Shown piece after piece: positions 4,888-34,591 of a stretch of 64,000 nucleotides of DNA. Made by a program: the position numbers and the translations under genes. The stretch is from positions 146,881 to 210,880 of the forward strand of contig NZ_JBDFQT010000004.1 of the NCBI RefSeq assembly GCF_039675725.1, written 5' to 3'. The notes beneath the pieces are model-generated. The model searched no databases. It was given only the letters and a program-made list of their open reading frames with translations, and was not told the DNA's origin. How positions within the stretch are numbered: the first letter of the stretch is position 1; each line of letters begins with the position of its first letter. This stretch comes from Erwinia sp. Eh17-17 (lineage in GTDB: Bacteria; Pseudomonadota; Gammaproteobacteria; Enterobacterales; Enterobacteriaceae).

Positions 4888-7059
4888 ATGACCGTGCCAA
4901 TCTCTCGCCCTGAAGTCAGTCATAAAAATGATTCTTTATCCTGCTCCGCCGCCGGTATTTTCACGCCATCGATTGCCGCACTGCTGGTGATGGCTGCGTT
5001 ACAGCCCGCTTTCGCCGCCGATGGCAAAACCACCGACACGCTGACCGTGGAAGCGAATGCGGATACCGCAGCAGCGCAGGCCACCACTGACTACAGCGTT
5101 CCGGTCACCCGTGCAGGCACCAAAATGCCGCTGACGCTGCGCGATATCCCGCAGTCTGCCACGATTGTGACTAAGCAGCGTATTCAGGATCAAAAACTAC
5201 AAAGCATCGGCGAGGTGTTAAGCAACACCACGGGTGTCTCCGCATCTAATATCGATTCAGACCGCTCCAACTACTATTCACGCGGTTTTATGATTAACAA
5301 CTACCTGTTTGACGGCATCCCGACCGTTGTCGACAACCAGTGGGATTTAGGCGATACCGCCGGAGATACGGAGATTTATGACCGTATTGAAGTGATCCGC
5401 GGTGCCAACAGTCTGAGTACCGGTTCCGGTAATCCGTCAGCGTCTGTGAATATGGTGCGCAAACACGCTGACAGCAAAGTGCTGACCGGCAATTTCTCGG
5501 CGGAGACCGGCAGCTGGGACAAACAGCGCTATACGGGTGATATCAGCACCCCGCTTAATGAATCAGGCACTGTCCGTGGCCGGGCTATCGGCGGCTATCA
5601 GGATAACGACAAGTGGATCGATCGCTACAGTGCGCGTAAAAAATTCCTCACTCTGGTGCTGGATGCGGACCTGACGGACTCCACCACGCTGTCGTTCGGC
5701 TGGGACTATCAGCAGAGCCATACCAACGACCCGACCTGGGGCGGATTACCCACCTTCTACTCCGACGGCAGCCGTACCCGTTACGATCGTGAAAACAACA
5801 CCGCAGCAGACTGGACTTACAGCGATAAAGAGTCGAATAAAGTCTTCGCCACCCTGACGCAGAAATTTGATAACGGCTGGCAGGCGCAGGTGAACGGTTC
5901 ACATGCGAAAACCACCTTCGACACCCGGCTGATGAGCTCATACCTCTACCCGGATAAAGCCACCGGGGCGGGCATTGCGCCTTTCGACGGCTGGAATAAA
6001 GGTTCACGTAAAGTGGACGCCGTTGACATCTACGCCAACGGCCCCTTTGAGCTGCTGGGCCGCACTCATGAACTGATGGCAGGCGGTAGCTATAGCAAAC
6101 AGGAGAGCCTGTTCTTTAACTCGTTCTCTGATATTTCTTCTGCCGACGTCAACGGCTTCAACAACTGGGACGGCAACATCGACCAGGGAGACTGGAGCGC
6201 GTGGAAGGTGGAGAAAGACGATACCATTCGTCAGAAGTCAGCCTATACCGCCGCCCGTTTCTCACTGGCTGATCCGCTGTCGCTGTTGGTGGGGGCGCGC
6301 TATACCGACTGGAGAGGCAACGGCACCAGCGGTAACAAAACCAGCAGCAAAATTGCACCCTATGCCGGTCTGACTTATGACATCAACGACACGTATTCGG
6401 TTTACACCAGCTATACCTCGATTTTCCAGCCGCAGACATTCCGCAGTGCGGATGCAAAATACATCGGCGCGGTAACGGGGAAAAGCTATGAAACGGGCCT
6501 GAAGGGGGACTGGAATAACAGCCGTCTGACCGCCACCCTGTCGCTGTTTCGCACCGAACAGAACAACCTGGGCAACAATACTTACGGCACCATCGGCACC
6601 TCAACGGAATACGCGTATGAATCGATTGATGCCGTCAGCCGTGGCGTAGAGTTTGAAGTAAACGGAGCGCTGACCGATAATTGGCAGATGACCTTCGGCG
6701 CCTCACGCTATATTGCTGAACAGCGTAACGGCACCGCCGTGATGCCGGAAATTCCGCGTACCACCGCCAAGCTGTTTACCCGCTATCGTCTGCCGATGCT
6801 GCCGGACCTGACCGTCGGCGGTGGCGTGAACTGGCAGAACAAAACCTGGGCGAACGTTGATGGTGCTCCGGCGGATTACATCGACCAGTCACCGGTAACC
6901 CTGGTGAATCTGTTCAGCCGCTATCAGGTAACGAAGCAGCTTTCGGTTCAGGCAAATATTAACAACCTGTTCGATAAAGAGTATTACGACTACCTCGGCA
7001 CCTATGTGGTTTACGGTGCGCCGCGTAACGTCTCGGTTTCGGCCAACTACTCGTTTTAA
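4888..7059 (+). CDS. TonB-dependent outer-membrane siderophore receptor (FhuE/FoxA-like)
   Basis: Long signal peptide ending ALQPAFA-ADG, plug-domain-like motifs and a C-terminal ...SANYSF aromatic terminus. The ATG at 4888 was chosen as start; an earlier TTG at 4840 is possible. Confidence 0.8.
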   Translation: MTVPISRPEVSHKNDSLSCSAAGIFTPSIAALLVMAALQPAFAADGKTTDTLTVEANADTAAAQATTDYSVPVTRAGTKMPLTLRDIPQSATIVTKQRIQDQKLQSIGEVLSNTTGVSASNIDSDRSNYYSRGFMINNYLFDGIPTVVDNQWDLGDTAGDTEIYDRIEVIRGANSLSTGSGNPSASVNMVRKHADSKVLTGNFSAETGSWDKQRYTGDISTPLNESGTVRGRAIGGYQDNDKWIDRYSARKKFLTLVLDADLTDSTTLSFGWDYQQSHTNDPTWGGLPTFYSDGSRTRYDRENNTAADWTYSDKESNKVFATLTQKFDNGWQAQVNGSHAKTTFDTRLMSSYLYPDKATGAGIAPFDGWNKGSRKVDAVDIYANGPFELLGRTHELMAGGSYSKQESLFFNSFSDISSADVNGFNNWDGNIDQGDWSAWKVEKDDTIRQKSAYTAARFSLADPLSLLVGARYTDWRGNGTSGNKTSSKIAPYAGLTYDINDTYSVYTSYTSIFQPQTFRSADAKYIGAVTGKSYETGLKGDWNNSRLTATLSLFRTEQNNLGNNTYGTIGTSTEYAYESIDAVSRGVEFEVNGALTDNWQMTFGASRYIAEQRNGTAVMPEIPRTTAKLFTRYRLPMLPDLTVGGGVNWQNKTWANVDGAPADYIDQSPVTLVNLFSRYQVTKQLSVQANINNLFDKEYYDYLGTYVVYGAPRNVSVSANYSF

Positions 7060-28418: not shown

Positions 28419-29333
28419 TCAGAGCGGAAACACCGCGAAATCATGCGCCATCTCGGTGTGTTCAAACACCGCCCGGCACTCCGCCAGCAGCCGTTCACTA
28501 TCACCCCGCAGGTAACGCGTGCTGAGATGCGTAACAATCAGCCGTTTTGCGCCGCTTTCCAGCGCCACTTTTGCCGCCTGCGCCGTGGTGGAATGCCCGC
28601 GGCTGTTGGCCTTCTCTTCCATCGCCACTTCCAGCGTGGCCTCATGCACCATCAGGTCTACCCCCGCTGCCATTTCGTTCGCCGCCGCCGTCGGTGCGGT
28701 ATCGCCAAAAATCGCCAGGCTGCGCCCTTTGATTTTATCGCCCACGTAATCCCAGCCGTTAAGGGTCCGGCCATCCGGCAGCGTCACGCGCTTACCGTGC
28801 TTCAGGTCATAGAAGTAAGGCCCGGCAGGAATGCCGTCGGCGGCCAGCTTCGTCGCATCCAGCGCGCCCGGCTTATCATGCTCATCAATGCGGTAGCCGT
28901 AACACTCCACCGGATGGGTCATCGGGTACGCCGTTACGCGGAAATGCTCATCGTTGCACACCTCACCCGCGCTAATTTCGATAATCTCCAGCGGGAAGGT
29001 CAGCCACGAGCCGCTCAGGCTGAGGGTGGTTTCGACAAAGGTTTTCAGCCCCGCAGGGCCGTATATCGTCATGGGGTCGGTAGAGCCGTTCATCGACCGG
29101 CTGGTGAGCAGACCCGGCAGGCCAAAAATATGATCGCCGTGCAGATGGGTAATAAAGATCTTCTCGATCTTCCCCGGCTTGATCGGGGTGCGCAGGATCT
29201 GGTGCTGCGTGGCCTCCCCGCAGTCAAACAGCCAGGTGGCATTGCGCACCCCCTGCAAATCCAGCGCTATGCTGGTGACGTTGCGCTCGCGACCGGGCGT
29301 TCCGGCACCGGTACCTAAAAACTGCAATTGCAT
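28419..29333 (-). CDS. rbn: Ribonuclease BN / RNase Z (tRNA 3'-end processing metallo-beta-lactamase)
   Basis: [26 protein letters not shown]...[17 protein letters not shown]... aligns along its length with E. coli RNase BN (ElaC) and has the HxHxDH motif. The longer track ORF from 29372 overlaps rtcR. Confidence 0.85.
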
Positions 29334-29352
29334 AATTGACGGACTCCCTGAG

Positions 29353-30936
29353 CTATTGTTGCGGTAATTCACCCGACTTCACGCTGTCCCAGTCTAACGC
29401 AAAACGGGCCAGATACTTGCGCAGCCGGTCGGCGTCATTCGGCTGTTTCTTCTGCTGGCGTGAAACGGCAAACAGCGTGCGGCCGGCCTCCGACAGCGAT
29501 GCGGATTCGCGACACACCTTCAGCACCGTCTCCAGCTGGCTGTGGTCAAACAGATCCAGCGTCTCCGGTAACACCAGCGTGGGTTCAAGCTGCCAGCTGG
29601 CGCGCAGGCGGGCGATCTCTTCTTCCACCTGCGCCAGTTCGATACGGCCGTTATCCGCCAGCGTGGCCATGCGGGTGACGGAGGCGCTCAGCTCGCGAAA
29701 GTTACCGCGCCACAGGGCAGCAGGCGCGCAGGCAAATTGCAGGTAACGCTGACGCGCCTGCGGCTCAAAACGCACCTGCGACTGGGCATCGCTGGCAAAG
29801 CGCAGCAGTTCAAACTCCAGATTAGGTTCAATATCTTCACGCCGTTCCGCCAGCCCCGGCAGCGTAAAGCTCCACATATTAATACGCGCATAGAGATCCT
29901 CACGGAAGCGCCCTTCCGCCACCCACTGGCGCATATCGCGATGGGTCCCGGCGATCAGCTGAAAATCACTGCTGACCTCTTTATCCGCGCCGAACGGCAG
30001 GAAGCGCTTCTCTTCTATCGCTTTCAGCAGCATCGCCTGTTCATCCAGCCCCAGCTCGGCAATCTCATCAAGAAATAACATGCCGCCGTCGGCCTCACGC
30101 AGCAGCCCGTTGCGCGGCTGCAACGCGCCGGTGAAGGCCCCTTTCACATGGCCAAACAGCGTGGACATGGCATTATCACCGCGCAGCGTGGCGCAGTTGA
30201 CCGCCACCAGCCTGCCGCTGACCCGATGACGTGACTGGCGCAGCTGATAAATTCGCTCGGCCAGAAACGATTTGCCCGCCCCGGTCGGGCCGCTCAGCAG
30301 CAGTGGCGCGTCCGAGCGCAGCGCCACCCGTTCAATCTGATCGATCAGGTTATTAAAGGTGGCGTTACGCGTGGAAATACCGCCCTTCAGCAGCGATACC
30401 GACTCCTGACGTTCGCGCATAAAGCGGCTGGTCAATGTGGCATAACGGCTCAGGTCGAGGTCAATCAGCGTACAGACGCCCTCGGTTTTGGCACTCTCCT
30501 GTTCACGCGGGGCGGGGGCCGTTTGCAGCAGTCTGGCGGGCAGATAGCGTGCCTCGGTCAGCAGGAACCAGCAGATCTGCACCACATGCGTTCCGGTGGT
30601 GATATGCACCAGATACTCTTCATTCTCGGTATCAAAAGGATAGTGGCGGGCAAAATCGAGCAGGACGGTGTACACCTCCTCAAAATCCCACGGGTCATTC
30701 AGCGTAATCGGGTTCAGCCGCACCTCGGTTTCCGGCGAGACCAGCGCGATATCCTCCGACATTTGCTGTGCCATGGTCTGACGGTCGGGCTGATGCAGCA
30801 GGTCCAGGCGGTCAACCGGCAGATCCGGCTGCATGCACAGCCCCAGCGTCGGTCGCCATTTGTTCCAGCGGTTTTCACGCTTGCCCCGCTTATCCAGCGT
30901 GGTTCCCAGCATGCCTATCACCACTCTGCGCTTCAT
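29353..30936 (-). CDS. rtcR: Sigma-54-dependent transcriptional activator RtcR (N-terminal CARF domain, AAA+ and HTH)
   Basis: 527 aa with full-length similarity to E. coli RtcR (...[13 protein letters not shown]...[28 protein letters not shown]...[17 protein letters not shown]...GAFTGA...). Walker A and the GAFTGA sigma-54 contact motif are present. Confidence 0.9.
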
Positions 30937-30957
30937 GCCTTATCCTTTTATCGCAAT

Positions 30958-30977
30958 ATTTATCCCACAGGATAAAT
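30958..30977. promoter_or_regulatory. Perfect 8-bp inverted repeat ATTTATCC-caca-GGATAAAT in the rtcR upstream region
   Basis: It lies about 20 bp upstream of the rtcR start. A candidate operator. Confidence 0.35.
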
Positions 30978-31071
30978 TCCTCCCTCAACCCGCAGCAAGC
31001 CCTTTCTTTCGCGTAAAAATAAAAATGATATTTATCAATCAACTAAAAATAATTTCACCTTTTTTTTCACC

Positions 31072-31089
31072 CTGGCACGCTTCTGGCAA
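31072..31089 (+). promoter_or_regulatory. Sigma-54 (-24/-12) promoter for the SPFH-rtcB-rlaP operon
   Basis: TGGCACGcttcTGGCAA: GG at 31074-75 and GC at 31086-87, 12 bp apart as in the TGGCACG-N4-TTGCW consensus. It is oriented toward rtcB, and the divergent activator is RtcR. Confidence 0.7.
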
Positions 31090-31197
31090 TAGTTACCCCG
31101 TCGATATGCTGAATCATGCCAGGGTTATGAACCCAGCCGGCGCACCGGGAACGGATGACCGTTTTCCCGCAGGCGTTCCGTCAGCACCAGACATTTT

Positions 31198-31243
31198 GCG
31201 AAGGGCACAGGGCCAGAACGGGTTCGACTCCCGGCTTCGCACC
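31198..31243 (+). ncRNA. tRNA-like minihelix (acceptor stem plus T-arm mimic) in the operon leader; candidate structured ncRNA element
   Basis: 5' gcgaag (31198-203) pairs with cttcgc (31235-240) followed by ACC. Between them is a cggg-TTCGACT-cccg T-arm with the canonical GGTTCGAnTCC T-loop. There is no D or anticodon arm. Confidence 0.45.
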
Positions 31244-31433
31244 TCTCTCCCAGGAGCCTTGAATAGCAGTACCCCGGCTGTGCAGTCAGCAGCCCACCCG
31301 GAGCACCGGCTAACGCGTCGGGTCTGGGGCATCATCTCCGCGCCGCCGCCGTACCGGGTGCCGCTCAGATGCTCCCCCAGGCTTCACGCCGCAGCCCGCG
31401 CTCCGCGGTGCCCAAATTAATTAAGGAGATAAG

Positions 31434-32567
31434 ATGTTTAAGAAATTCACCATACGGAAAGGTCAAATCGCGTTGCTGTCAAAGAACGATGAATACCAAC
31501 AAATTTTGCCAGCCGGGGAGTATCGTTTCCGCGACTGGCGCCTTCAGCTCCAGGTCGCGACCTTCGGGCTGAATGAGCCGCTGGATAGTCCCCTGGCCGA
31601 CTACCTGCAACAGTATCACCCGCAGTGGGTAAGCGAGTTCTGTCAGACGGTGGCGGTGCCTGAAACCTGCGTCGGCCTGCACTATAAAAATGACCAGCTG
31701 GTGGAGATCCTGCCGCCGGGTACGCGCCGCCTGTGGTGGCTGAACGGCAGCGCGCAGCGCGTCGACCTGCTGTCCACCGATACGGTAGAGATCCCGGCGA
31801 CCATCGTCGCCAGCCTGATGCAGCCACAGCTGCGCCAGCACGTGGTGGCCGGTAACGCCGGAGTACTGCTGGTGCAGATACCGGCCTGGCATGTGGGCAT
31901 CCTGAAGGTTGACGGCATGCCGCAGGCGCTGCTGCCGCCCGGAGCCAGCGGCTACTGGCGCTTCAACCATCAGGTTGATGTTGAGGTGGTGGACACCCGC
32001 GTGCAGGCGCTGGAAGTGAGCGGCCAGGAGATTCTGACGCGTGATAAAGTCAGCTTACGCATCAATCTGGCGGCCAACTGGCGCTACAGCGATGTGATGA
32101 GCGCCTATGCGCAGCTGACCAAACCGCTGGAATACCTCTACCGTGAGCTGCAGTTTGCGCTGCGGGAAGCGGTCGGGACGCGCAGCCTGGACGAACTGCT
32201 GGAAAATAAGCAGGCGATCGATGAGCTGGTAAGCACGCAGATCCGCCAGAACGTGGCGGCTTACGGGATGGAAGTGGCCTCACTGGGGGTGAAAGACATC
32301 ATCCTGCCGGGAGAGATGAAGACCATCCTTACCCGCCTGGTGGAGGCGGAGAAATCGGCCCAGGCAAACGTGATCCGTCGGCGCGAAGAGACGGCCGCCA
32401 CCCGATCGCTGCTGAATACGGCCAAAGTGATGGAAAACAACCCGGTCGCACTGCGCCTGAAGGAGCTGGAAACGCTGGAAAGAGTGGCAGAGCGCATCGA
32501 TAAAATCTCCGTATTCGGCGGCCTGGACCAGGTGCTGAACGGACTGGTACAGATAAAAGGGAACTGA
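31434..32567 (+). CDS. SPFH/band-7 (slipin-like) domain protein without an obvious N-terminal TM helix
   Basis: 377 aa with an SPFH-like core and a C-terminal coiled-coil (EAEKSAQANVIRRREETAATRSLLNTAKV...). Its stop lies 3 bp before the rtcB start. Confidence 0.7.
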   Translation: MFKKFTIRKGQIALLSKNDEYQQILPAGEYRFRDWRLQLQVATFGLNEPLDSPLADYLQQYHPQWVSEFCQTVAVPETCVGLHYKNDQLVEILPPGTRRLWWLNGSAQRVDLLSTDTVEIPATIVASLMQPQLRQHVVAGNAGVLLVQIPAWHVGILKVDGMPQALLPPGASGYWRFNHQVDVEVVDTRVQALEVSGQEILTRDKVSLRINLAANWRYSDVMSAYAQLTKPLEYLYRELQFALREAVGTRSLDELLENKQAIDELVSTQIRQNVAAYGMEVASLGVKDIILPGEMKTILTRLVEAEKSAQANVIRRREETAATRSLLNTAKVMENNPVALRLKELETLERVAERIDKISVFGGLDQVLNGLVQIKGN

Positions 32568-32569
32568 CA

Positions 32570-33787
<1,218 letters not shown>

Positions 33788-33799
33788 GGAGCAAACCTG

Positions 33800-34591
33800 A
33801 TGAATACAGAAGAAGCCGTCAGCCCGGCGATGCGCGAGCGGGTGCTGGCAGCATTAAAGGCGATTGAAGTCCGCGAAAACGTGCGCGTGCTGTACGCCTG
33901 CGAGTCCGGCAGCCGGGGCTGGGGATTCGCTTCACCCGACAGCGACTACGATGTGCGCTTTATCTACGTGCATCAGCCTGAGTGGTATCTGCGCGTGGAG
34001 CCGCCGCGTGATGTAATCGAACGGCCGATCGACAGCGAGCTGGACGTCTGCGGCTGGGAGCTGCGCAAAACGCTGGGGCTGCTGAAGGCCGCCAACCCGA
34101 CGCTGATGGAGTGGCTGGACTCGCCGGTGGTTTATCGCCAGCACCCGGACGCGGTGCAGGCTTTACGCGGGCTGGTGCCGGATTTCTTCAGCGATCTGCG
34201 GGCGCGCTACCACTATCTGTCGATGGCGAAGAAGAACTTTCGCGGCTATTTACAGGGCGAGTCGGTGCGGCTGAAAAAGTACTTCTACGTGCTGCGCCCG
34301 CTGCTGGCCGTGCAGTGGATCGAAGCCGGGAAAGGCATACCGCCAATGCGTTTTGACCGGCTAATGGCGGGAACGGTAAGCGACCCGCTGCTGCGGGCAG
34401 AGATCGACGCCCTGCTGGAAAATAAACGCCAGGCGGGTGAAGCGGAGTACGGCCCGCGCCGTGAGCGGATCCATGCCTTCATTGGGCAGCAGCTGGCACG
34501 GCAGGAGCGTCCGCCGCTGGATGACACACCGCGCCGCGATGCCAACGCCCTGAACCAGCTGCTGATGCAGACGGTACTTTCCCCGGTATAA
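33800..34591 (+). CDS. Pol-beta-superfamily nucleotidyltransferase of the RtcB-associated (RlaP-like) type
   Basis: The minimal nucleotidyltransferase motif GSRGWGFASPDSDYDV (GS...DxD) near the N-terminus. It is the third gene of the operon. The family assignment is from memory of RtcB-linked nucleotidyltransferases. Confidence 0.65.
   Translation: MNTEEAVSPAMRERVLAALKAIEVRENVRVLYACESGSRGWGFASPDSDYDVRFIYVHQPEWYLRVEPPRDVIERPIDSELDVCGWELRKTLGLLKAANPTLMEWLDSPVVYRQHPDAVQALRGLVPDFFSDLRARYHYLSMAKKNFRGYLQGESVRLKKYFYVLRPLLAVQWIEAGKGIPPMRFDRLMAGTVSDPLLRAEIDALLENKRQAGEAEYGPRRERIHAFIGQQLARQERPPLDDTPRRDANALNQLLMQTVLSPV

Follow-up and report, generated by a model that had tools for sequence, protein, structure and literature searches.

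We analysed a 64-kb stretch of the genome of Erwinia sp. Eh17-17 (contig NZ_JBDFQT010000004.1, positions 146,881 to 210,880; below, the window, to whose 64 kb all counts of window-unique motifs refer) and focused on the long RNA leader of one of its operons and on a tRNA-like minihelix within that leader. Judged by its genes and signals, the locus is an RtcR/sigma-54-controlled SPFH(Band-7)-rtcB-rlaP RNA-repair operon, with rtcR in divergent orientation. Its SPFH and RtcB proteins are identical to those of Erwinia sp. Eh17-17, a close relative of E. persicina and E. rhapontici. Its leader is predicted to be a conserved structured RNA of three domains, the minihelix being the middle one. The locus contains the following genes and signals:

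28419-29372, minus strand: RNase Z/BN gene, directly downstream of rtcR and on the same strand.
29353-30936, minus strand: rtcR, encoding a CARF / AAA+ sigma-54 activator / HTH regulator (Pfam RtcR and Sigma54_activat).
31073-31088, plus strand: putative sigma-54 (-24/-12) promoter TGGCACGCTTCTGGCA, with GG-N10-GC spacing and one mismatch to TGGCAC-N5-TTGCA.
31423-31428, plus strand: Shine-Dalgarno sequence AAGGAG of the SPFH gene, seen in the sequence and the leader alignment and lying outside the predicted helices.
31434-32567, plus strand: gene for an SPFH/Band-7 (slipin) protein of 377 aa (Pfam Band_7, 6e-27).
32570-33787, plus strand: gene for the RtcB RNA ligase (Pfam RtcB, 3e-130).
33800-34591, plus strand: gene for RlaP (PF10127), a Pol-beta-family nucleotidyltransferase (Pfam RlaP, 5e-98).

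The promoter TGGCACGCTTCTGGCA is the sole match to TGGCAC-N5-TKGCA in the window, where 0.19 would be expected by chance. It is adjoined by the divergent rtcR, and its GG-N10-GC element is kept in orthologous loci; we regard it as a putative RtcR-dependent promoter with a predicted transcription start near 31099. A first-pass annotation, made from the letters of the window, had placed a sigma-54 promoter about 350 nucleotides (nt) before the first open reading frame (ORF) of an rtcB operon. The promoter was borne out, at 345 nt upstream of the first gene and with a leader of ~335-345 nt, and rtcB does belong to the operon, but the first ORF, with its first ATG at 31434, is the SPFH/Band-7 gene according to Pfam, and it is to SPFH that the element is tied. 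The leader had also been described as GC-rich, but a high GC content does not characterise the element: among homologous leaders it varies between 43% and 63% and follows genome composition.

The minihelix lies in the middle of the leader and consists of these parts:

31197-31244, plus strand: the whole tRNA-like minihelix, with acceptor, insert, T arm and tail, supported by a covariance model and covariation.
31198-31203 with 31235-31240, plus strand: acceptor helix GCGAAG/CTTCGC of 6 bp, from the sequence and RNAfold.
31204-31217, plus strand: insert of 14 nt with a small hairpin and GG, both of which are present in relatives too.
31218-31234, plus strand: T arm, with the T-loop TTCGACT at 31223-31229.
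C31219-G31222 with C31230-G31233, plus strand: T-stem of 4 bp, the fifth position, A31218/G31234, being mismatched.
A31241, C31242, C31243, T31244, plus strand: tail directly 3' of the acceptor helix.

This middle domain appears to mimic the top half of a tRNA, with an acceptor helix from G1:C72, a pseudo-D insert, a T arm and an A-CC end. The sequence GGTTCGACTCC at 31221-31231 is a textbook T-arm core and has no second match in the window, against a chance expectation of 0.19. The canonical T-loop, the 4-bp T-stem and the 6-bp gcgaag/cttcgc helix followed by ACC had been noted in the first-pass annotation and are upheld by the sequence and by RNAfold, whose minimum free energy structure contains exactly this minihelix, both in the isolated 61 nt and in the whole 356-nt leader, and so supports the acceptor/T-arm pairing. 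A possible seventh acceptor pair, T31197-A31241, is not kept in relatives. The annotation was right that the D stem and anticodon arm are missing, and the element does not form the four-arm cloverleaf of RF00005, but the 14-nt insert in their place is not empty.

Standard searches pass over the minihelix. Rfam 15 gave no match in the whole window at gathering scores and, at E<=10, only noise in 30900-31500, the best of these being mascRNA, aligned to the acceptor and T arm with 15.9 bits (gathering score 42.5; E=2.3). The Y-RNA and tmRNA models to which the annotation had pointed had no match in that interval at this threshold, nor had the tRNA and YrlA models. ARAGORN found neither a tRNA nor a tmRNA in the window, and the pair G3:U70, characteristic of the tmRNA tRNA-like domain (TLD), is absent from the element in either acceptor register; the proposed likeness to the tmRNA-TLD did not hold up in the ARAGORN scan.

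To place the element among its relatives, we used an alignment of SPFH homologues to scan a single genome from each species and took 80 of the more than 576 loci reported by the scan as the homologous set, using in addition separate loci numbered L081-L094. The 80 loci come from gamma- and beta-proteobacteria (Enterobacterales, Pseudomonas, Burkholderiales, Rhodocyclales and Neisseriaceae), and the majority have the architecture rtcR, leader, then SPFH-rtcB-rlaP. In the 700 nt upstream of the SPFH gene, 79 of the 80 carry the motif GGTTCRANTCC, with one copy in all 16 Enterobacterales loci and two copies, 66-79 nt apart, in 48 loci. Nearly all rtcR-bearing loci have a sigma-54 promoter upstream of the leader; the distance from promoter to SPFH ATG is 309-404 nt in Enterobacterales and ~460-600 nt elsewhere, and promoter-to-T-loop distances are consistent across loci. 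In the other proteobacteria the leader reaches 450-550 nt and holds two tRNA-like units, the count in non-enteric loci being one or two per leader.

The unit nearest the SPFH gene is usually of full size, with 39-42 nt between acceptor and T-stem in a T-loop-anchored search, and in non-enteric loci it is a full cloverleaf that both ARAGORN and Rfam call a tRNA. With the Rfam tRNA model the non-enteric units score 32-61 bits, and real tRNA genes in the same loci mostly 46-68 bits. The identities that ARAGORN assigns are inconsistent (Met, Thr, Ser, Arg, Leu, Ile, Asn, Cys, Trp, Val and "Stop"), other non-enteric units have abnormal anticodon loops with 2- or 4-nt "anticodons" in the ARAGORN output, and the Pseudomonas units carry a UUCG-type tetraloop in place of the anticodon loop. 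Such inconsistent and malformed anticodons indicate tRNA mimics and not decoding tRNAs. The unit distal to the SPFH gene is a minihelix in ~25-30 loci, mainly of beta-proteobacteria, with an insert of either 12-16 nt or 19-29 nt; with its 14-nt insert, the window element thus has the same form as these distal units, to which it also corresponds in position.

The relationship was put on a common footing with a covariance model, R1, based on five minihelices, the enteric ones plus that of L070. The model scores the window element at 67 bits, finds counterparts in other Enterobacterales and recovers distal units in Burkholderia, Accumulibacter, Thiobacillus, Dechloromonas and others at 22-44 bits, with E values down to 1e-8. 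Plain MAFFT put the 5' acceptor strands of the minihelices out of register, and the covariance-model alignment was used instead. Among 24 units aligned in this way, by a fit that is itself biased toward the structure, 91% of cells are paired and 10 of the 12 pairs show compensatory changes, amounting to 52 compensatory cells. None of 500 column shuffles, which ignore phylogeny, reached as high a value, and the covariation score of 0.425 fell to 0.03-0.11 when the partners were slid by 1-3 columns. Within the clade of the window, GCGAAG/CTTCGC has become GCGAAT/ATTCGC in L082, which has a perfect 5-bp T-stem, and Xenorhabdus has GTGAAC/GTTCAC in its place. In a 7-bp register, pair 1-72 would be mismatched in 11 of the 24 units, so the helix is of 6 bp, and it begins with G, position +1, in 21 of the 24. 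Conservation and covariation thus confirm the pairing that had been proposed from the window.

The part of tRNA made up of the acceptor, the T arm and N73-C74-C75 is the part read by RNase P, RNase Z and the CCA-adding enzyme, and in pre-tRNA C74 and C75 pair with the P15 loop of bacterial RNase P RNA. In a two-register count over 41 minihelix units, 32 had CC at the position equivalent to C74/C75, where ~18% would be expected, a statistic that ignores relatedness, and 17 had the full CCA. In beta-proteobacteria, the NCCA of the distal unit directly abuts the 5' end of the next unit, so one cut by RNase P would give the first unit a CCA end. The insert always has a GG that could stand for G18-G19 of the D-loop, but a GG is too likely by chance to count as evidence for such a role.

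The minihelix is real, and it is only the middle one of three covarying domains, the annotation having singled out this part of a larger structure. The remainder of the leader is laid out as follows:

31108-31185, plus strand: 5' domain, a three-way junction, from MAFFT covariation.
31108-31112 with 31181-31185, plus strand: P1, the closing helix of the 5' domain.
31118-31137, plus strand: P2 hairpin of the 5' domain, from the MAFFT alignment.
31138-31180, plus strand: P3, a bipartite hairpin of the 5' domain with a conserved bulged TT and a conserved GCGTTCCG strand.
31245-31299, plus strand: linker with a short hairpin, a conserved AGCAGTACCC stretch and a hairpin at ~31276-31297.
31300-31404, plus strand: 3' domain, enclosing a variable hairpin, from MAFFT covariation.
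31300-31310 with 31394-31404, plus strand: outer helix of the 3' domain, from MAFFT covariation.
31317-31333 with 31371-31387, plus strand: inner helix of the 3' domain, from MAFFT covariation.

Covariation of the 5' and 3' domains was counted on plain MAFFT alignments, not on model-fitted ones. For the 5' domain, 25 Enterobacterales leaders gave 92.1% paired cells and compensatory changes in 23 of 30 pairs, a count that includes the 4 T-stem pairs of the minihelix; with the partners slid, 39-48% of cells were paired. Leaders of Pseudomonas, Burkholderiales and Rhodocyclales can be aligned over this domain too and show covariation in it, 17 of 19 pairs being compensatory. For the 3' domain, which is flanked by conserved GGCA(A/T) and (T/C)CCCC strands and CTTC(G/A)C, 24 Enterobacterales leaders gave 90.2% paired cells, with 20 of 23 pairs and 118 cells compensatory and 41-51% paired after sliding. 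In both cases none of 500 shuffles, which again ignore phylogeny, reached as high. The features of the linker were recognised by eye in the alignment of 24 leaders and with RNAfold, and lie outside the RNAalifold consensus. A scan of the leader for terminators or attenuators found none, and the Shine-Dalgarno sequence is not sequestered in the consensus structure. We also considered whether the leader codes for protein, as the window has a 195-aa ORF at 30833-31420 (plus strand) and a 73-aa ORF at 31114-31335 (minus strand), and rejected this: no frame is open across relatives.

tRNA-like RNAs are already associated with this type of operon. The abstract of the 2016 study by Burroughs and Aravind reportedly describes SPFH/Band-7 modules with "a novel tRNA-like molecule" as their cognate RNA. 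According to the summary in a 2018 preprint from the Wolin laboratory, that study (NAR 2016) predicted an RNA named b7a-tRNA next to Band-7 and RtcB, one with a strong likeness to a genuine tRNA, and proposed it to be a functional counterpart of YrlA, redundant or interchangeable with it, with occasional swaps that place YrlA beside Band-7 and b7a-tRNA beside Rsr (10.1101/312249). The same preprint states that the existence of b7a-tRNA had not been experimentally validated (10.1101/312249). Our literature search for b7a found no other paper describing the element. In P. aeruginosa the element is PA4581.1, annotated as tRNA-Arg4, which lies between rtcR (PA4581) and the Band-7 gene PA4582; it is without CCA, was detected by quantitative reverse-transcription PCR (qRT-PCR) in a 2026 paper at about half the level of canonical tRNAs, and had a similar level in the wild type and in a mutant with strongly up-regulated Rtc proteins (PMC13637947). 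By RNA-seq it was among the largest expression increases in a later cystic fibrosis (CF) isolate (PMC8743555).

We consider it very probable that the window element belongs to the b7a-tRNA class. As that class is known from the preprint's summary (10.1101/312249), the element would be its Enterobacterales form, reduced to a minihelix. The leader stands immediately 5' of the SPFH gene, followed by rtcB and rlaP, as it does in the homologous loci. The operon type is the same, the position is again between the rtcR/sigma-54 promoter and the SPFH gene, and the T arm is canonical; the 5' domain is homologous across classes, the promoter-to-T-loop distances agree, and model R1 links the window element to the other units. 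Resemblance to an authentic tRNA is seen in the non-enteric loci, with ARAGORN calls and Rfam scores of 32-61 bits, and not in the window, where the element has neither D stem nor anticodon arm, is found by no tRNA detector and is a single unit where many loci have two. As far as we checked, the minihelix form, the two flanking covarying domains, which have no Rfam 15 entry, and the presence of the leader in E. coli appear to be new.

Another close counterpart is YrlA, from the rsr-yrlBA-rtcBA operon in Salmonella (Chen et al. 2014; Wang et al. 2018), likewise a noncoding RNA that mimics tRNA, is cotranscribed in an RtcR/sigma-54 RtcB operon and keeps the T arm and elbow rather than decoding capacity. 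The window element differs from it in having no Rfam Y-RNA match and no Ro-binding terminal stem, and its operon partner gene encodes an SPFH protein, with no Ro60/Rsr gene in the operon. The suggestion in the annotation of a Y-RNA-like noncoding RNA fared accordingly: it fits the published b7a-tRNA hypothesis but finds no support from a YrlA or Y-RNA match at E<=10 or from an rsr gene. Other top-half mimics, the tmRNA-TLD and RNAs of the mascRNA/MALAT1 type, share the coaxial acceptor/T arm, canonical T-loop and N73-C74-C75. The mascRNA model is the only one in Rfam that aligns at all, over the full length and far below threshold, and the likeness to it and to the tmRNA-TLD is one of architecture, not of homology or demonstrated processing.

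The leader accompanies SPFH-RlaP even where the locus lacks rtcB or rtcR. Many Enterobacterales have the leader, SPFH and RlaP without rtcB in the operon (L001, L002, L008, L009, L012, L014, L016, L082-L084, L088-L089), and the RNA therefore appears to be tied to SPFH/RlaP and not to the ligase. In E. coli, a slipin-RlaP pair is found between yjbD and lysC in 1632 of 5426 complete genomes (~30%; L093, L094), preceded by a sigma-54 promoter, TGGCACGCTTCTCGCA, and a diverged leader with the 5' domain, T arm and 3' domain. No rtcR adjoins this locus, the pair has a zeta-toxin family gene as its neighbour, and the leader carries no RNA feature in the RefSeq annotation. A blastn search of E. coli genomes with the window leader gave no match because the E. 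coli version is too diverged; it was found via the SPFH protein.

The SPFH protein itself (377 aa) consists of an N-terminal beta-rich region, the SPFH domain and long helices, and reading its N-terminal sequence by eye, with no predictor, revealed no apparent transmembrane segment. In the AlphaFold model (m845b5f344b5c; mean pLDDT 71, moderate confidence), the ~115-residue region ahead of the SPFH domain is built as two beta-rich segments split by two short helices. Foldseek matches the model to stomatin, HflK/C and prohibitin, and also to the major vault protein, over 430 alignment columns covering the beta-rich region, SPFH domain and long helix (E=7e-7), with a low TM-score of 0.36. The vault, with the SPFH-like shoulder of its major protein and its vault RNAs, is similar in joining an SPFH-fold protein, there one that forms a cage, with a small structured RNA; given the TM-score and the pLDDT, this resemblance is only a lead and an analogy, known here from the genes and a predicted model. 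An SPFH protein of ~520 aa with a duplicated N-terminal region is encoded in L028, L060, L064, L073, L080 and L092, the hosts being Providencia, Snodgrassella, Gilliamella, Burkholderia pyrrocinia, a Neisseriaceae genome and Xenorhabdus. No SPFH homologues were found in the phage genomes searched.

We assign a probability of roughly 0.6 to the reading that the element serves the SPFH-RtcB-RlaP system as an RNA partner or as a processing handle. In this scheme, damaged-tRNA signals would activate RtcR, as is established for Salmonella, and RtcR would then fire the promoter, the leader being made, as the anatomy of the locus suggests, in one piece with the operon mRNA. RNase P would cut at the 5' end of the minihelix and a 3' endonuclease, for instance the RNase Z/BN encoded beside rtcR, would trim the CCA-less tail. 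The cleavage would free a small stable RNA, separate the leader domains from the mRNA, or both, and the freed RNA might, in the least certain step, serve as the cognate partner of an SPFH scaffold with RlaP/RtcB, as YrlA does for Ro60 in Salmonella. Since the retained G1:C72, N73-C74-C75, T-loop and elbow are features read by tRNA-handling proteins, the element would be recognised by RNase P and a 3' endonuclease. We rate processing by tRNA-processing enzymes as an even chance; a role in trans as a ribonucleoprotein partner, rather than in cis only, is put forward tentatively, as something short of probable. RlaP is described in a preprint as adding nucleotides to RNA and acting on RNA ends (PMC12776372). 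On a bolder proposal, which we think unlikely, the whole ~300-nt leader would be one multi-domain RNA of an undescribed class, cut by RNase P and the rtcR-linked RNase Z, its N-CC end would be completed by the CCA-adding enzyme or RlaP, and a vault-like SPFH ribonucleoprotein would present broken tRNAs to RtcB. If that were true, bacteria would have a counterpart of their own to the Ro/Y-RNA and vault/vault-RNA particles.

Several observations weigh against a tRNA-like partner or handle. Each functional step, for the window element and for any enterobacterial version, is one that we infer. The folding energy is no better than that of shuffled sequence (z = -0.57 for the minihelix and -1.0 for the leader), and folding alone could therefore not have established the minihelix; its alignment, moreover, carries the bias toward structure mentioned above. 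The acceptor and T stack has 10-11 bp against a canonical 12, position 76 is T and not A, and the element is not recognised as tRNA-like by ARAGORN or Rfam. Nor is the acceptor helix universal in Enterobacterales: types found in Klebsiella, Citrobacter, Phytobacter, Chania and E. coli keep the T arm but enclose it, along with a second hairpin, in a different helix (AACCA...TGGTT), and in types from Brenneria, Lonsdalea and Hafnia the pairing partner of the 3' strand seems to lie downstream. No function that depends on an intact acceptor end can thus be general.

The alternative that survives best is a purely cis-acting leader that controls stability, processing or translation of the SPFH-rtcB-rlaP mRNA, for example through an RNase P cut that removes the 5' domain or through feedback by a tRNA-binding protein or the operon products, with no separate small RNA. 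The placing of the element speaks for this, as it stands in every case between promoter and first gene, with a single orientation and distances that are constrained, and only ~20 nt separate the end of the large 3' domain from the Shine-Dalgarno sequence; covariation spans the whole leader and not just its tRNA-like part, and the enteric subtypes without the acceptor helix retain the T arm and both flanking domains. Set against these are the free Shine-Dalgarno sequence and the leader's want of a terminator or attenuator. In rtcR-less loci, moreover, the units follow real tRNA arrays in the same orientation, as if handled like tRNAs, and some loci have an extra NCCA minihelix between SPFH and rtcB, which is not a leader position. 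PA4581.1 is present at around half the canonical tRNA level whether or not the Rtc proteins are up-regulated (PMC13637947). On balance, we judge an exclusively cis-acting leader to be rather unlikely.

We think still less of the idea that the mimic is a decoy or sensor for tRNA-targeting toxins, either soaking up nucleases and transferases or yielding fragments with 2',3'-cyclic phosphates that activate the CARF domain of RtcR. tRNA fragments do activate RtcR through its CARF domain (PMC7790460), the anticodon loops of the full-size units differ extremely from lineage to lineage, as an arms race might produce, and the retained N-CC acceptor end could bait toxins directed at the acceptor stem or 3' end. 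Lacking an anticodon arm, however, the window element cannot be bait for anticodon nucleases, and in Pseudomonas the anticodon loop gives way to the tetraloop. One copy per mRNA would be weak against the cellular tRNA pool, and Salmonella YrlA is not cleaved by the relevant nuclease (PMC7790460). A decoy or sensor is accordingly improbable.

Two further explanations have next to no weight. A chance match or relic, such as the 3' part of a tRNA left as an att scar, could appeal to how common tRNA 3' fragments (T arm, acceptor 3' strand and CCA) are as scars of island integration, to the nonsignificant folding energy and to the single T-loop match in 64 kb, with 0.19 expected, but is effectively refuted by the presence of the motif at the same place in all but one of the 80 loci and in two proteobacterial classes, by both acceptor strands being present and changing together, by the covariation of the minihelix and of both flanking domains, and by its place inside a transcription unit with a conserved promoter. 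A genuine Y RNA of the YrlA/YrlB family, binding a Ro60/Rsr encoded elsewhere, would agree with the Salmonella rsr-yrlBA-rtcBA arrangement and with the swaps summarized in 10.1101/312249, but is not supported: no Y-RNA or YrlA model matches in 30900-31500 at E<=10, no rsr gene or TROVE-domain protein is present among the operon genes scanned, and no long terminal stem surrounds the tRNA-like module, whose flanks form domains of their own.

Some loci of the survey depart from the common pattern. The only one of the 80 without the T-loop motif is that of Pseudomonas entomophila (L063 3545-4000), where the promoter and 5' domain are kept and the tRNA-like unit seems to have been lost or replaced. 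Certain loci without rtcR and without the promoter have 5-9 ordinary tRNA genes ~0.8-1 kb upstream of the units and in the same orientation (L026 2145-2705, L033 2240-2700, L042 2229-2845, L047 1332-2406 and L048 65-511), which suggests cotranscription and processing with real tRNAs. Five beta-proteobacterial loci have one more minihelix or T-arm element, placed between the SPFH gene and rtcB (L055 5562-5610, L037 ~5364, L051 ~5347, L061 ~5377 and L068 ~5383); that of L055 matches model R1 along the model's whole length with 27.5 bits and carries an A-CCA tail. In Pseudomonas (L018, L025 and similar loci; ~5128-5620), the SPFH-rtcB gap of ~480 nt holds a cysteine-rich, zinc-ribbon-like ORF and no RNA element.

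The surroundings of rtcR add to this picture. In the window, the rtcR product matches the NCBIfam RNA_repair_RtcR equivalog with 823 bits as well as the PADLOC RtcR model, PADLOC recognising nothing else. The neighbouring RNase Z/BN matches the NCBIfam ribonuclease Z equivalog NF000800 with 533 bits (cut-off 398), aligned from residue 14; its true start is probably ~13 codons inside the ORF, which would leave a gap of ~19 nt after rtcR. An RNase Z/BN gene directly 3' of a same-strand rtcR, with a gap of ~9-28 nt, recurs in L001-L004, L006, L013, L081-L084 and L092, that is, in Erwinia (including close relatives of the window), Brenneria, Lonsdalea, Proteus, Providencia and Xenorhabdus, and the two genes are probably cotranscribed. 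In Affinibrenneria (L087), rtcR is gone and RNase Z still adjoins the leader. The tandem may reflect a functional connection with 3' processing of the CCA-less minihelix, or no more than synteny. Five Acidovorax loci have the RNase P RNA gene (rnpB, 195-210 bits) immediately 3' of rtcR, always on the minus strand (L023 1295-1634, L057 1290-1629, L058 1213-1648, L062 273-612 and L066 1272-1623), probably a single event within one genus that placed a second tRNA-processing function at the locus. Between rtcR and the promoter of the window, 30937-31072 contains TTATC/GATAA-type motifs in several copies together with a long A/T-rich tract. Motifs of this kind recur in other enterobacterial loci and E. 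coli; the motifs and tract are candidates for an RtcR upstream activating sequence and an IHF site.

These results bear on the reason for which tRNA-like RNAs, YrlA and b7a-tRNA among them, are present in RtcB RNA-repair operons. Our analysis would extend the b7a-tRNA class into Enterobacterales in the form of an acceptor/T-arm minihelix that standard tRNA and Rfam searches miss, and the way in which the RNA travels with SPFH and RlaP points to the SPFH/RlaP pair as its partners. The reduced form shows which features have been selected, namely the T-loop and elbow, G1:C72 and N73-C74-C75, and would thereby narrow the candidate readers to enzymes that recognise the top half of tRNA. With a diverged copy in E. 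coli, the role of tRNA-like RNAs in Rtc operons becomes testable in a standard organism.

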